Assembly: GCA_944381165.1 (NCBI GenBank)
Contig: CALWKC010000011.1
Location: forward strand, 4,225 to 68,224
Direction: 5' to 3'
Length of the DNA stretch: 64,000 nt
Source of the DNA: an uncultured Lachnospira sp.
Lineage (GTDB): Bacteria > Bacillota > Clostridia > Lachnospirales > Lachnospiraceae
The notes under the pieces were generated by a model. The model saw only the letters and a list, made by a program, of their open reading frames with translations, did no database searches and was not told where the DNA came from. Made by a program: the position numbers and the translations under genes. Positions 18,688-32,347 of this stretch are shown in pieces; position 1 is the stretch's first letter, and each line of letters opens with the position of its first letter.

Positions 18688-18740
18688 CGAACTTCATTTT
18701 CAGCCTTTTATGCTATGATTATTAATGAGGTTTGGACAGT

Positions 18741-20561
18741 ATGTTTAATCTTGAGGAAGAGTTAAAAAAACTCCCGGATAAGCCGGGAGTTTATATTATG
18801 CACGATAAGATAGATACTATAATTTATGTGGGAAAAGCGATTAGTCTGAGAAACCGCGTGCGCCAGTATTTCAGGGCAAGCACAAAGCACACGCCGAAGA
18901 TTAAGAGTATGGTATCCAATATCGCATATTTTGAATATATTATTACCGATTCAGAGCTGGAAGCGCTGGTGCTTGAGTGCAATCTGATTAAGGAGCACAG
19001 ACCTAAATATAACACTATGTTAAAGGATGACAAGACATATCCTTTTATAAAGGTTACAGTGCATGAAGCCTATCCGAGAGTGCTCTTTTCAAGGAAAATG
19101 AAGCACGGAACGGGAAGATATTTCGGACCGTATACTTCCGCGTCCGCTGTCAAAGATACTATTGAGCTGCTTTGCAAGCTTTATAAAATAAGGACGTGCA
19201 GCCGGGTGCTGCCCAGAGACACAGGAAAGGACAGACCGTGCCTCAATTACCATATAGGACAGTGCAGCGCTCCTTGTCAGGGGTATATTTCCGAGGAGGA
19301 ATACAAAAAGTCTGTTGATTCGGTTATTGATTTTCTCAGCGGAAATTACGCTAAAATCATTAATCAGCTGACGGAGCAGATGCAGCAGGCCTCTGATAAA
19401 ATGGAATTTGAGGAGGCTGCAAAGTACAGGGATTTGATTGCAAGTGTGCGTCAGGTTGCGCAAAAGCAGAAGATTACTGCTGATGACAGCGCTGACAGGG
19501 ATGTTATCGCATGCGCGTCTGACGGAACGGATGCAGTTGTACAGGTGTTTTTTATAAGAGAGGGAAAGCTTCTGGGAAGAGACCATTTTCATATGTCGGT
19601 TGCTCAGGGTGACAGCAGGAGCGAGATAATCTCACAGTTTATGAAGCAGTATTACGGCGGAACGCCGTATATTCCGAAGGTTGTCATGCTTCAGGAGGAG
19701 ATTGAGGATGCTCAGATAATTTCCGACTGGCTGTCTCAGATTAAAAAGCGCAGAGTTTTAATTGTTACTCCTAAAAAGGGCGACAAGGAAAAGCTGGTGG
19801 AGCTGGCTTATAAGAACGCTCAGATGGTGCTTATCCAGGACGGCGAGAAGATAAAGCGGGAGCAGCAAAGAACTATCGGTGCTATGGAGGAGATTGCCGG
19901 GTGGCTTAATCTTCCCGGCATAAGGAGAGCCGAGGCATATGATATTTCGAATACTAACGGAATTGAGTCTGTGGGTTCAATGGTGGTATTTGAGGACGGG
20001 AAGCCGAAGAAAAATGATTACAGAAAATTTAAGATAAAGACTGTCAAGGGACCGGATGATTACAAGAGTATGCGTGAGGTGCTGACGCGCCGTTTCAAGA
20101 GAGCGCTTGAAGGCTCATCGGGTTTTGACGTATACCCTGATCTTATTATGATGGACGGCGGAAGAGGACAGGTAAATATAGCTCTTGAGGTGCTCTCGGA
20201 GCTTGGCCTTTCAATTCCTGTCTGCGGAATGGTTAAGGATGACCGCCACAACACAAGAGGGCTGTATTATAATAATGTCGAGATACCGATTGATACGCAT
20301 AGCGAGGGCTTCAAGCTGATTACGAGAGTTCAGGACGAGGCGCATAGATTTGCGATAGAGTACCACAGAAGTTTAAGGAGCAAGGTACAGGTAAATTCTG
20401 TCCTCGACGGAATACAGGGAGTTGGCCCTGCAAGGCGAAAGGCTCTTATGAGGCATTTTCAGGATATTGACAAAATCAGAAATGCGAGCGTTGAGGAGCT
20501 TCAGGAGGCGGAAGGAATAACTCAAAAAGTAGCACAAAACATATACACATATTTCCATTAA
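18741..20561 (+). CDS. uvrC: Excinuclease ABC subunit C
   Basis: GIY-YIG module [18 protein letters not shown], UvrBC-interaction region, and C-terminal HhH ([17 protein letters not shown]). Confidence 0.95.
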
Positions 20562-20571
20562 AAGGGAGATG

Positions 20572-20719
20572 TGGTATAATGTTTGAAAGCATTGAGCAGT
20601 GCATAAGGCGGAATGCATATAATCGTCTGTGCTTGCACAGGAAAGATTATATGCATTTTGACTTATATAGGGCGAAAGCCCGAAAGCCATAGGAGCGGTA
20701 GCGCCTATGGCGTGCACTG
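20572..20719 (+). repeat. Copy A of a ~148-nt structured repeat (candidate cis-regulatory or small RNA) in the hprK leader
   Basis: Starts with TGGTATAATGT. Closing helix CAGTGCA (20597-20603) / TGCACTG (20713-20719), a long hairpin, GGGC-GAAA-GCCC, and a GCCATAGG...CCTATGGC hairpin. A near-identical reverse-complement copy lies at 26389-26535. Confidence 0.6.
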
Positions 20720-20767
20720 AGCAGAATTTAAAAATTTTATGTGGCAGCAGAAACGGAGGGCAATCGG

Positions 20768-25573: not shown

Positions 25574-26338
25574 TCAGCGGGCTCTGTATTTTTTTCGTTG
25601 CTGGTGTGAGGCGGCGCGCAGCATTATTTTTCGTGGAGCGAATTTCGCACACATAACCGCCGTCTTCATTGTAAAAGTAGGAACAATGATAAGCTTGTTT
25701 TTAAACATTTTTTCCAGCGCATATTTTGCGCAGAAATCGGCGCTGATGCCTTTTAACGCAAAACGAACGTTTGCGGTATTGTTAAAATTTGTATTTACGG
25801 GACCGGGACATAACGCGCTTATGCGCACATTGCTGCCGGCTTCCTTTAATTCCTCAAATATTGAATTAGTGAGACTGGTGATATAGGCCTTTGTCGCGTA
25901 GTAGGCTGCCATATGAGGACCGCCAGGAAACAGCCCGGCGCTTGAGGAGACATTTAAAATATAGCCCTCATCGCGCGCTATAAAATCTCCAAGAAGCTCT
26001 TTTGTGAGAATGTGTACTGCCTTTATGTTTACGTCAATCATATCTAAGTCCTTAGACAGACTCGTCTCGTGAAAATGTCCGATGTCACCGAAACCGGCGC
26101 TGTTGACTAAAATTTTCAGTCGGTATTTTTTCAGTGTATCTGCCAGAGTGCGGCAGGAATCTTCGTCAGTCAAGTCGCAGGGTATAATTCTGCACTTTGT
26201 TTCAAGCCTTGATGCAAGGTTGTTCAGGGCTTTTGTATTTCTTGCTACAAGGATTAAGTTGTATCCCATGCGGGAGAGTCTTATTGCAAGCGCTTTTCCT
26301 ATGCCTGAGCTTGCGCCTGTAATACATGCTGTTGCCAT
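25574..26338 (-). CDS. Short-chain dehydrogenase/reductase (SDR) family oxidoreductase
   Basis: SD GGAGGA. TGASSGIGKALA cofactor motif and catalytic YYATKAY (YxxxK). Confidence 0.9.
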   Translation of the reverse strand: MATACITGASSGIGKALAIRLSRMGYNLILVARNTKALNNLASRLETKCRIIPCDLTDEDSCRTLADTLKKYRLKILVNSAGFGDIGHFHETSLSKDLDMIDVNIKAVHILTKELLGDFIARDEGYILNVSSSAGLFPGGPHMAAYYATKAYITSLTNSIFEELKEAGSNVRISALCPGPVNTNFNNTANVRFALKGISADFCAKYALEKMFKNKLIIVPTFTMKTAVMCAKFAPRKIMLRAASHQQRKKYRAR

Positions 26339-26388
26339 AGTAATCCTCCAATTCGAAGTGATTTATTGCGGGGGAACGCCGCAGGCCG

Positions 26389-26535
26389 CAGTGCGAGCCA
26401 TAGGCGCTTTGCTCCTATGGCTCTCGGGCTTTCGCCCTATATAATCCGCAAGGCATATAATTGTTTCTGTGCAAGCACAGACGATTATATGCCTTACGGA
26501 TTATGCACTGCTCAATGCTTACGGACATTATACCA
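26389..26535 (-). repeat. Copy B of the ~148-nt structured repeat, in the leader of the SDR gene
   Basis: Its reverse complement aligns end to end with 20572-20719. Same TGGTATAATGT start (26525-26535 on the + strand as ACATTATACCA), same hairpins, and a closing helix GCAGTGC/GCACTGC. Confidence 0.6.
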
Positions 26536-26663
26536 TGTCCGCCTTGCGGACATGGAGCCTCCGGCGGATTTTAAGCGCTCTAATTTTTGCGGTAAACGCA
26601 AAAATTAATGCGCAGTATAATGTGCACTCTGTGCACATTATACCATAAATGAGGTGTTTAGAT

Positions 26664-27266
26664 ATGGTTATTAAGAATAAAACTACATTTAAAAAAGAAA
26701 CAATAAGAAATATTATGCGAGCCGACGGCTTTGATAATAAAAGCTATAAGACCAAAAAAGCAGTTTTGAATATGTCGGGGCTTGTAAGCGGTATGGTGTG
26801 CGTGAGTATTTTGTCGAGGTCGCTTTACAGCGGAGAGGGAGCATATAAATTCTGCGCGGCAATATTCGGGATTATATGCGCCGTTTGTCTGTTTGCCGGG
26901 ATGTATGGTATTGATAAAAAAAATTATATAAAATTTGCACAGAATTATTCATGTATGATAGGGAATACTTATCTGTATGAGATAGATTCTGATGAGATTC
27001 TTGTATGGTGTGAGAGCGGCTCTTCGGATAATGAAAAAGATGCGGAGCAGCCGAGACGAATTTTATGGCAGCAGGTTGAGAAATGGTGTGAGGATTTGGA
27101 CAGCATATATCTTTTTTTGAGAGATGACGACGAGGCTTTTGATTGTGCGAAGTGCGAGGCGCTTGACAAAAAGGGGTTTACCGAATGTGAGGCAAAGGAT
27201 TTAAAAGAGCTATGCGGTGCCGTTATGGCGGCAAGGGAGTATGAAAATAAGAGACAGGAGAAATAA
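26664..27266 (+). CDS. Hypothetical membrane protein
   Basis: SD GAGGTG 7 nt before ATG 26664. Two predicted TM segments (LVSGMVCVSIL, IFGIICAVCLFAGM). No recognisable motif. Confidence 0.5.
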   Translation: MVIKNKTTFKKETIRNIMRADGFDNKSYKTKKAVLNMSGLVSGMVCVSILSRSLYSGEGAYKFCAAIFGIICAVCLFAGMYGIDKKNYIKFAQNYSCMIGNTYLYEIDSDEILVWCESGSSDNEKDAEQPRRILWQQVEKWCEDLDSIYLFLRDDDEAFDCAKCEALDKKGFTECEAKDLKELCGAVMAAREYENKRQEK

Positions 27267-31217: not shown

Positions 31218-32347
31218 TGACAAAAGTAGATATTATATCAGGTTTTTTGGGAGCAGGAAAGACAACTCTCATCGGAAAACTTTTAAAGGAAGCTTTGCAG
31301 GGAGAGCAGGTTGTGCTTATTGAGAACGAGTTCGGAGAAATCGGTATTGACGGCGGATTTTTAAAGGATTCCGGCGTTGAGATACGCGAGATGAACTCAG
31401 GCTGCATCTGCTGTTCGCTTGTAGGAGATTTCGGTACATCGCTGAAGGAGGTTGTTGACACATATCATCCGGACAGAATAATTATTGAGCCGTCCGGCGT
31501 AGGCAAGCTTTCTGATGTTATCAAAGCCGTAAAGGACTTGCATATTGAGGATGAAATTCGTCTGAACAGTGCATCAACGGTGGCTGACGCGTCAAAAGTG
31601 AAAATGTATATGAAGAATTTCGGCGAATTTTTCAACAACCAGATTGAACATGCTGGTACGATTATTTTGAGCAGAACTCAGAATATAAGCGAGGATAAGT
31701 TAAATACCGCCGTTGAGATGATTCGCTCTCTCAATGCAGACGCCCGCGTTATCACCACGCCGTGGGATGATTTGGAGGGCGCTACAATTTTAGCTGCGAT
31801 GGAAAATGTGACAAATCTTGAACTTGAGATGCTTGCGGAGCAGGCGGAAAAAACTCACCAGGAATATGAGCACGAGCACCATCACCATGATGGAGAGTGC
31901 GGCTGCGGACATCACCATGAAGATGAGGAGCATGAGCACGAGCATCATGATCATGACGGAGAGTGCTGTCACGGACATCACCATGAAGATGAGGAGCATG
32001 AGCACGAGCATCATCATGACGGAGAGTGCGGCTGCGGACATCATCATGACCATGAAGGTCATCATCACGCAGACGAAGTATTTACAAGCTGGGGAGTTGA
32101 GACGCCTAACAAGTATGACAGGGCAGAGCTTGATGAGATATTAAAGAAGCTTTCAGAGACAGAGGAATACGGAAATATTCTGAGGTCTAAGGGCATGCTT
32201 CCTGCAAATGACGGAACATGGATGTATTTTGATTTAGTTCCTCAGGAATATGAGATAAGAGACGGAAAGCCTGACTATACGGGAAGAATTTGCGTTATCG
32301 GCGCACAGCTTAAGGAGCAGGAGCTCAAGGAGCTTTTCAGAGTATAA
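31217..32347 (+). CDS. CobW/G3E-family metallochaperone GTPase with a His/Cys-rich insert
   Basis: The ATG overlaps the aroA stop (TAATG). P-loop GFLGAGKTTL. GCICCS (CxCC) metal motif. His-rich block HEHHHHDGECGCGHHHEDEE... Confidence 0.85.
   Translation: MTKVDIISGFLGAGKTTLIGKLLKEALQGEQVVLIENEFGEIGIDGGFLKDSGVEIREMNSGCICCSLVGDFGTSLKEVVDTYHPDRIIIEPSGVGKLSDVIKAVKDLHIEDEIRLNSASTVADASKVKMYMKNFGEFFNNQIEHAGTIILSRTQNISEDKLNTAVEMIRSLNADARVITTPWDDLEGATILAAMENVTNLELEMLAEQAEKTHQEYEHEHHHHDGECGCGHHHEDEEHEHEHHDHDGECCHGHHHEDEEHEHEHHHDGECGCGHHHDHEGHHHADEVFTSWGVETPNKYDRAELDEILKKLSETEEYGNILRSKGMLPANDGTWMYFDLVPQEYEIRDGKPDYTGRICVIGAQLKEQELKELFRV
31889..32068 (+). repeat. In-frame tandem repeat (about 2.7 units of 63-66 nt) encoding DGEC(G/C)(C/H)GHHHEDEEHEHEHH
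   Basis: Units start at 31889, 31955 and 32018, with near-identical nucleotide sequence GA(T/C)GGAGAGTGC...CATGAGCACGAGCATCAT. Confidence 0.85.

Follow-up and report, generated by a model that had tools for sequence, protein, structure and literature searches.

Relatives of Clostridiales-1 RNA with a short second hairpin in leaders and spacers of gut Lachnospiraceae

A sequence of about 160 nt that occurs twice in the stretch of Lachnospira DNA analysed here (64 kb; the window), once ahead of hprK and once ahead of an SDR gene, is a variant of the known orphan RNA family Clostridiales-1 and not a new class. By its architecture and by bridging forms, and not by a curated score, we assign it to a large short-H2 subfamily, widespread in gut Lachnospiraceae, in which the second hairpin (H2) is reduced to a few base pairs. 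We favour, at slightly better than even confidence, a reading in which both repeats are transcribed four-way-junction RNAs of this short-H2 Clostridiales-1 type that are constitutive and act in cis on the fate of the transcript. What appears to be new is the subfamily itself, its invisibility at Rfam thresholds, its linkage to promoters, its strict sense placement and its rapid gain and loss.

Two copies of a four-helix element in the window

A repeat search of the window found a single long inverted repeat pair, 20562-20696 and 26411-26545 (135 nt, 85% complementary), and with one single-base indel the homology extends to about 20721 and 26388. Copy A (20562-20721, plus strand) and copy B (26388-26545, minus strand) are thus 85% identical over about 160 nt, which bears out the claim of an earlier, sequence-only reading that the sequence of the uvrC-hprK spacer recurs as a reverse complement. 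According to Pfam, copy A follows uvrC (18732-20561) and is followed by hprK, a ROK kinase gene, murB, rapZ and whiA; copy B has the minus-strand SDR gene (25574-26338) downstream and a divergent gene of 200 aa on its other side. The 5'-leader position proposed for both copies is supported, and the distances given for it are confirmed: the hprK ATG (20768) lies 48 nt past the end of copy A at 20719, and the SDR ATG (26338, minus strand) 50 nt past the end of copy B at 26389.

The helices that had been drawn by eye are those of the minimum free energy (MFE) fold of both copies. Each folds into four helices (-67.6 kcal/mol for copy A and -78.7 kcal/mol for copy B; z = -9.1 and -10.5), and 0 of 200 shuffles folded as stably as either. 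In copy A (plus strand), a conserved, single-stranded 5' tail (AAGCATTGAG, 20587-20596), which consists of invariant or near-invariant columns in 69 sequences, precedes the 5' strand of the closing helix P1 (CAGTGC, 20597-20602; partner 20714-20719). The junction holds a long hairpin H1 (20603-20666), whose conserved apex GTGCTTGCAC (20629-20638) forms a G(CUUG)C-type loop; a short hairpin H2, GGGC-GAAA-GCCC (20670-20681), which an invariant junction ATA precedes; and a hairpin H3, GCCATAGGAGC-GGTA-GCGCCTATGGC (20686-20711), with a conserved A.G mismatch. The 3' strand of P1 (GCACTG, 20714-20719) leads without a terminator to the hprK ribosome-binding site (RBS), GGAGG, and start codon. The RNA element of copy B (26388-26520, minus strand) has the same parts: the tail at 26520-26512, P1 at 26511-26505 and 26394-26388, H1 at 26504-26441 (apex 26478-26469), H2 at 26437-26426 and H3 at 26423-26395. 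Within H1, the two copies differ by four pairs in which both sides have changed and by one G.U to G-C change. In both full leaders, the element makes up an autonomous folding domain that leaves the RBS unsequestered.

A covariance model built from relatives and run over the 64 kb with filters off recovered the two copies only (104.8 and 94.3 bits), the next match scoring 12 bits. Chance similarity, or an ordinary terminator or attenuator hairpin, could be argued from the fact that both sites are intergenic and rich in hairpins; against it stand the 85% identity over about 160 nt, fold z scores of -9 to -10.5, hundreds of homologues and the lack of a T-run past either copy, and we regard its probability as negligible. 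The terminator reading in particular is excluded by the data. We found no small open reading frame in the element: the ATG of AAGCAATGAGC is TTG in the window and a stop follows after 4 codons. Long open reading frames that run through elements of the family are artefacts. Elsewhere, at 31860-32054, the window holds three tandem repeats of 63-66 nt that are 74-85% identical to the first of them and that, by eye, could encode a His/Glu/Cys-rich stretch.

Both copies had been said to open with an extended -10 box (TGnTATAAT), and the exact 11-mer TGGTATAATGT is indeed present before each, at 20572-20582 (plus strand) and 26525-26535 (minus strand), with a third copy at 26635-26645 (minus strand). 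The 11-mer is over-represented in the window, with four matches at up to one mismatch against 0.93 expected, a number that 0 of 100 shuffles reached. The extended -10 TGGTATAAT of copy A (20572-20580, plus strand) has a weak -35, TTTCCA (20552-20557), 17 nt upstream; that of copy B (26527-26535, minus strand) comes without a recognisable -35.

Upstream of copy B, an accessory module of about 110 nt (26536-26645, minus strand) lies between direct repeats of TGGTATAATGT. It opens with a perfect palindrome, GTATAATGTGCAC-NNN-GTGCACATTATAC (26615-26643), that gives the region between the divergent SDR and 200-aa genes a TATAAT on each strand, and two further hairpins follow. A search of the window for a recurrent palindromic -10 motif found only this one. 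The 200-aa open reading frame (26664-27266, plus strand), which diverges from the SDR gene and starts about 20 nt from the palindromic double -10, matched nothing in Pfam. The module is found together with the element in the uvrC-hprK spacer of some conspecific strains (L100:2790-2900, and L105).

Relation to Clostridiales-1 RNA

An Rfam search of the whole window at gathering thresholds returned 0 matches. In a permissive search, copy A aligned to Clostridiales-1 RNA (RF01699) with 43.3 bits (E = 3e-8) and copy B with 36.6 bits (E = 6e-7); neither reaches the gathering threshold of 48 bits. The earlier reading did not recognise the element as any named riboswitch class and took a match to a known Rfam family as grounds for refutation; such a match exists in weak form, with both copies below the curated threshold. 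Both alignments cover the full model (positions 1-166 of 166): the P1 of the model, its long first hairpin (apex GUGCUUGCAC) and its third hairpin are matched in both copies, and about 30 model positions, corresponding to the second hairpin, are deleted. With E up to 10, other Rfam families gave only chance microRNA-like matches to the long hairpin around both copies, and the hammerhead, twister, twister-sister, pistol and hatchet models gave no match near either copy.

Compared feature by feature, both copies share with Clostridiales-1 RNA the four-stem junction closed by P1, which is present in the MFE fold as well as in the full-model alignment. They also share the GCUUGC-capped long first hairpin, their GTGCTTGCAC (20629-20638 and 26469-26478) being the Rfam consensus apex. 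The long second hairpin with its internal loops (UGAGcAuGaAG ... CGGAaUgCGAA) is absent, and GGGC-GAAA-GCCC stands in its place. In the third hairpin, RF01699 has a GGGAG / CGnA internal loop and most members of the subfamily read GAUGGAGC-GAA-GCGGAAUC; the window copies are simpler, GGAGC-GNNA-GCGCC with one A.G mismatch. A purine-rich internal loop and a small closing loop, GNNA or GAA, may be common to the third hairpins of the subfamily and of Clostridiales-1. The taxonomic range agrees too. RF01699 is found in Clostridiales and the human gut, our genome matches are almost all from Lachnospiraceae or Clostridia, the nearest named HprK relatives of the window belong to Lachnospira sp., and both groups of RNA are present in several copies per genome.

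Bridging forms connect the two groups. One is the canonical RF01699 member L071 (129.7 bits): its H1 apex is identical, and its full-length H2 ends in the tip GGGCGAAAGCCC, which at least this one canonical member shares with the subfamily. Conversely, the alignment of Clostridiales-1 published in 2010 includes one short-H2 member. A 'mergeTandem' flag in that alignment file, which we considered as a sign of tandem copies, is a generic formatting option.

The subfamily departs from Clostridiales-1 RNA in a consistent manner. The loops UGAG...GAAG / CGGA...CGAA, conserved in canonical H2, are missing from its 4-bp second hairpin; its P1 sequence (GCNNUGC) is distinct, a 5' tail (AAGCAWUGAG) is conserved, and most of its copies have a TGnTATAAT box 6 or 8 nt upstream. 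It is also mostly invisible at Rfam thresholds: among genomes, one of 16 short-H2 loci passed the RF01699 threshold (L072, 48.3 bits) and, among metagenomes, none of the 20 tested did (top score 45.9 bits), so that 35 of 36 copies score below it. Finally, the subfamily is consistently placed in sense in leaders and spacers, whereas the 2010 description is of a motif that is not cis-regulatory. In that description, Clostridiales-1 was judged to be probably an RNA, and neither cis-regulatory nor a riboswitch (Weinberg et al. 2010, PMC2864571). In the papers searched, we found no functional study of Clostridiales-1, and those that name the motif give it no function.

Conservation, strand and genomic setting

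The family was collected with two patterns. A genome scan for the exact H1 apex and GGGCGAAAGCCC, with one genome per species, returned 99 stretches, nearly all from Lachnospiraceae or other Clostridia, with a few chance matches in unrelated phyla; Hespellia stercorisuis DSM 15480 alone has at least 12 copies. A metagenome scan for the 5' tail, P1 and the H1 apex, which left H2 and H3 free, returned at least 120 stretches, and those among the matches listed come mostly from the human gut. The small hairpin in the metagenome matches listed is AUAGGGCG-AAN-GCCC. Its loop, counted in 84 metagenome copies among the matches listed, is GAAU in 40, GAAA in 18 and GAAC in 12. The GNRA tetraloop that had been read on the small hairpin therefore describes copy A (GAAA) and not the family, in which GAAU and GAAC predominate, and the idea that H2 serves as partner of a tetraloop receptor is weakened for this reason.

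Aligned with MAFFT, 69 copies show a P1 and a base of H1 that are rich in compensatory changes. When 105 distinct sequences were aligned to the model, pairing held in 93.6% of cells, compared with 74% in column shuffles and 31-49% with slid partners; an alignment fitted to the model favours pairing, and both the slid controls and the MAFFT-only alignment agree with the result. Eighteen of the 25 pairs have changed on both sides in these 105 sequences. Within P1, one pair is AU in 45 cases and CG in 38, and another is GC in 73 and AU in 16. The gene-sense strand folds more stably than its reverse complement in 67 of 72 copies, and in these 72 copies G.U pairs number 95 on the forward strand and 45 on the reverse. 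Therefore, selection works on the RNA of the sense strand.

Conservation extends to parts that lie outside the helices, namely the 5' tail AAGCAWUGAG (whose columns lay outside the pattern of the genome scan), the junction AUA, GGGCGAA, the purine-rich loops of H3 and a 3' GRA. Because the UGA and GRA columns are invariant, the UGA of the tail, facing the 3' GRA, may extend P1 by tandem G.A pairs. We dropped a candidate pseudoknot that would join the H2/H3 junction (CGUG, CGCG, CGGAAG) to the 4-6 nt immediately before the tail (CACG, CGCG, UUUUCG). Covariation is seen at one column pair (A-U 23, G-C 17), but the best helix score is 3.69 with own pairs and 3.20 with cross-pairs, neither the window copies nor the operon-internal class support the helix, and the segment would lie upstream of the predicted start site.

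Between co-directional genes, 42 genome copies are in sense and 0 in antisense orientation, and in an independent metagenome sample, among the matches listed, 36 are sense and 3 antisense; many of the loci are orthologous, so these counts overstate the number of independent events. The element is not oriented at random with respect to genes, and its structure covaries strongly and is specific to one strand. No terminator-like site lies between the element and the next gene in 48 of 55 copies, and neither window copy is followed by a T-run or terminator. The spacer to the next gene ranges from 0 to more than 400 nt (median 97 nt). The genes downstream are unrelated housekeeping genes: tatD, nadD, adk, pgk, trpE, dapF, trxB, fhs, plsY, galK, nrdR, rimP, ackA, dnaE and genes for histidine kinases, as well as hprK and the SDR gene of the window. 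Common to all settings is that the element is always positioned for sense transcription.

In L071 (2872-3314), 30 nt separate the canonical Clostridiales-1 RNA from a preceding T-box leader with its terminator; a position beyond the expression platform of another leader is therefore tolerated, or used, by the family. In L150 (1-1348), a short-H2 element occupies an rRNA spacer, with a 5S rRNA gene on one side and the beginning of a 23S rRNA gene on the other. Upstream of trpE, five loci (L029, L031, L053, L056 and L084) share a terminator-like sequence, GTCTGCC...GGACGAGCTTTTTTGCGCGT, about 330 nt past the previous gene, which suggests that an additional leader may lie ahead of the element in the trpE-linked copies. 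A T-box search ahead of the trpE-linked copies that a T-run precedes found no Rfam family at the gathering threshold.

Promoter linkage depends on context. A TATAAT-like hexamer stands 6 or 8 nt before the tail in about 60% of genome copies, usually preceded by TG, and in 75% of the metagenome copies among the matches listed. The box is present in 10 of 10 copies whose upstream gene is divergent and in 2 of 19 in which a co-directional open reading frame ends within 5 nt; where a copy abuts such an upstream frame, its tail shares its first bases with the stop codon. The earlier notion of a built-in promoter is thus right for most of the family, in which the -10 box keeps a fixed distance, and less so for copy A, whose box is not demonstrably borne by the element. 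Because L112, the closest of the sister species that lack the element, keeps TGGTATAATGTT just as far from the uvrC stop, copy A probably has a -10 box that is ancestral to the locus and not demonstrably delivered by the element. In the element-free uvrC-hprK spacer of L112 (2440-2475), the hprK promoter lies within a palindrome, GGTATAATG-N13-CATTATACC, and the first 17 nt of this palindrome (TATAATGTTCGCAAAGC) are similar to the start of family members, where promoter and tail lie. The L112 site may be a remnant instead of a site that was never occupied.

A complex conserved junction with invariant unpaired nucleotides, positioned ahead of growth-related genes, could be a regulatory leader, that is, a riboswitch or a protein-, tRNA- or temperature-responsive RNA through which many housekeeping genes are tuned to a global signal. 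In a few relatives, the 3' strand of P1 can by eye pair with a downstream repeat of its 5' strand. However, the element offers neither a terminator and antiterminator nor sequestration of the RBS, the start codon lies at any distance from 0 to more than 400 nt, and copies are also found directly past stop codons, past the terminator of another leader and in an rRNA spacer, and are dispensable in conspecific strains. We judge such a sensor very unlikely. A conventional riboswitch was rejected on the unrelated downstream genes, the lack of an expression platform in 48 of 55 copies and the free RBS in both window leaders.

Turnover of copies and proposed role

Among metagenome contigs that encode an identical HprK, most have copy A in the form seen in the window. 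In sister species whose HprK is 84-91% identical, the uvrC-hprK spacer measures 66-134 nt, compared with 206 nt in the window, and the SDR spacer 99-110 nt, compared with 325 nt. The covariance model found nothing at either locus in 21 kb of syntenic DNA from sister species. Therefore, copies A and B are most readily seen as recent, lineage-specific gains, and both are dispensable. In the conspecific strains L100 and L105, an internally deleted element stands at the uvrC-hprK locus ahead of an identical HprK, preceded by the accessory module (about 110 nt) found upstream of copy B in the window; the arrangement points to conversion between the uvrC-hprK and SDR loci. Copy B of L110 has a compensatory G-C to U-A change in H1, its H3 mismatch is repaired and its P1 3' strand bears a short duplication, and in L111 homology to a different upstream flank begins exactly at GGTATAATGT.

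Partial copies are also common. In about 40% of relatives, a full copy is followed by one to four tandem 5'-truncated units (for example, at L036:6591-6900, L045:2680-3045, L085:6884-7180 and about 25 other loci) that consist either of H2, H3 and the P1 3' strand or of the H1 3' arm through the P1 3' strand, and their number varies between orthologous loci. Because GCGAAAG-like strings occur both in H2 and past P1, we infer that replication slippage is a sufficient explanation for these units. In gut metagenomes, decayed copies that lack H3, or everything past the apex, are common.

The earlier suggestion of a MITE-like dispersed repeat is supported in the part that concerns dispersal, gain and loss. 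A selfish repeat of the REP, BOX, ERIC or MITE type would have no host function; its fold would be needed for propagation and its sense orientation would be merely what is tolerated. The lineage-specific gain of the window copies, the conversion and internal deletion among strains, the tandem 5'-truncated units in about 40% of relatives, the frequent decay in metagenomes and the unrelated downstream genes all fit this account. Against it, no transposase, integrase or reverse transcriptase is associated with the element, and we found no transposase-like or other mobilising gene near it. Searches of phage, plasmid and IMG/VR collections returned no similar sequence, and carriage by mobile DNA was rejected on these grounds. 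As for MITE traits, the sites are empty in sister species, the inverted termini amount to the 7-bp P1 only, the orientation is 42:0, and no target-site duplication is evident, the flanks in sister species having diverged too far to show one. Moreover, the asymmetry of G.U pairs points to selection at the level of the RNA strand, every setting without read-through from upstream has a -10 box, and orthologous copies, such as those of the L009 group, have been kept across species with compensatory changes. The selfish reading, which we consider unlikely, accounts for the turnover and not for the RNA-strand signature, the 42:0 orientation or the context-dependent promoter.

REP/BIME of Escherichia coli, BOX of Streptococcus pneumoniae, ERIC and bcr1 of the Bacillus cereus group are mosaic intergenic repeats transcribed within operons. 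Like them, the element is dispersed, intergenic, co-transcribed and forms a stable RNA structure; it is modular with variable tandem sub-units and is present or absent between close strains, and effects on mRNA stability have been proposed for repeats of this kind. Unlike them, it is low-copy, forms a four-way junction in place of simple palindromes, keeps strictly to one orientation, is strongly conserved across genera and frequently comes with a promoter. Correia elements of Neisseria are also small repeats that give promoter elements to their neighbours and form a long RNA hairpin in mRNAs. They have long terminal inverted repeats, a TA target duplication, hundreds of copies and both orientations, four traits of which none is seen in the element.

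On our favoured reading of a cis effect on the fate of the transcript, RNA synthesis would begin about 7 nt past each TATAAT of the two window copies, at the usual spacing between a -10 box and the start of transcription. With this start, the element would form the extreme 5' end, about the first 135 nt, of the hprK-glk-murB-rapZ-whiA mRNA and of the SDR mRNA. It would be an autonomous, constitutive RNA domain that protects the 5' end or provides a defined processing point, and not a sensor, and it would spread and decay as a low-copy dispersed repeat. A role in transcript fate seems to us the most likely because the element is autonomous and indifferent to the gene downstream, and because leaders, intercistronic spacers and an rRNA spacer all suit it equally. 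The leader stabilisers of ermC and aprE and the viral xrRNAs offer an analogy, being very stable 5' domains of mRNA that work independently of the coding sequence and before unrelated genes, as the element might. The element differs in its unpaired tail of 9-12 nt, a length that speaks against our preferred explanation: classical Firmicute 5' stabilisers lie within a few nucleotides of the 5' end. A candidate pairing of the 5' segment with the junction, which would give an xrRNA-like topology, was tested and is not significant.

The conserved tail, H1 apex and H2 and H3 loops suggest a specific partner and are left unexplained by passive protection. Together with the long tail, these loops keep alive a second account, in which the transcript is the precursor of a trans-acting stable RNA: a 135-nt junction would be cut from leaders and spacers, the many copies would be multiple genes for one RNA, and the excised junction would work with a protein partner or as an RNA assembly. 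Such an RNA would account for conservation beyond what folding needs (the tail AAGCAWUGAG, the apex GUGCUUGCAC, AUAGGGCGAA and the purine-rich H3 loops), for multiple copies per genome (at least 12 in H. stercorisuis) and for a copy in an rRNA spacer, where excision is the norm, and it agrees with the classification of Clostridiales-1 as not cis-regulatory (Weinberg et al. 2010, PMC2864571). It is at odds with the lack of a terminator or defined 3' end past the element, with the wide variation of H1 among copies of one genome, with close strains that lose or internally delete copies without replacement at that locus, and with the presence of just two copies in 64 kb. We rate it as a minority possibility. 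A stand-alone small-RNA gene with its own terminator was rejected: the -10 box is present, but the terminator is absent from the window copies and from most relatives. Of the proposal that the element is a structured leader or a small-RNA family, and no simple terminator, the structured RNA and the leader therefore stand and a stand-alone small RNA is unlikely. A CsrA sponge was also considered, since most relatives have GGA motifs in H3 and in their 3' tail, and was dropped, as these motifs are absent from the window copies.

A bolder form of the cis-acting reading, speculative and in our view improbable as a whole, would make the short-H2 element a portable expression punctuation module of gut Lachnospiraceae, coupled to promoters, necessarily transcribed and setting the fate of the flanking RNA. 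Such a module must be transcribed, and so would always lie in sense and be supplied with a -10 box when nothing reads in. It might block the 5'-to-3' exonuclease RNase J1, as a bacterial counterpart of viral exonuclease-resistant RNAs, or alternatively direct specific cleavage or cleave itself. The tail, the H1 apex and the H2 and H3 loops would then be contact surfaces for a nuclease or for tertiary folding, and the element would set the mRNA 5' ends of many housekeeping genes.

Clostridiales-1 is an abundant orphan RNA of the human gut microbiome for which there has been no functional lead since 2010. A covariance model that recovers short-H2 copies at 80-130 bits is a gain for annotation, and cultured carriers exist in Hespellia stercorisuis DSM 15480, Lacrimispora sp. 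HJ-01 and Acetivibrio ethanolgignens. For the first time, the family has testable traits, namely obligatory sense transcription, an extended -10 at a fixed distance, a position in leaders or spacers before unrelated core genes, the lack of an expression platform, and rapid gain, loss and tandem partial duplication. Together, these traits narrow the hypotheses for the family to control of RNA fate or a processed stable RNA.
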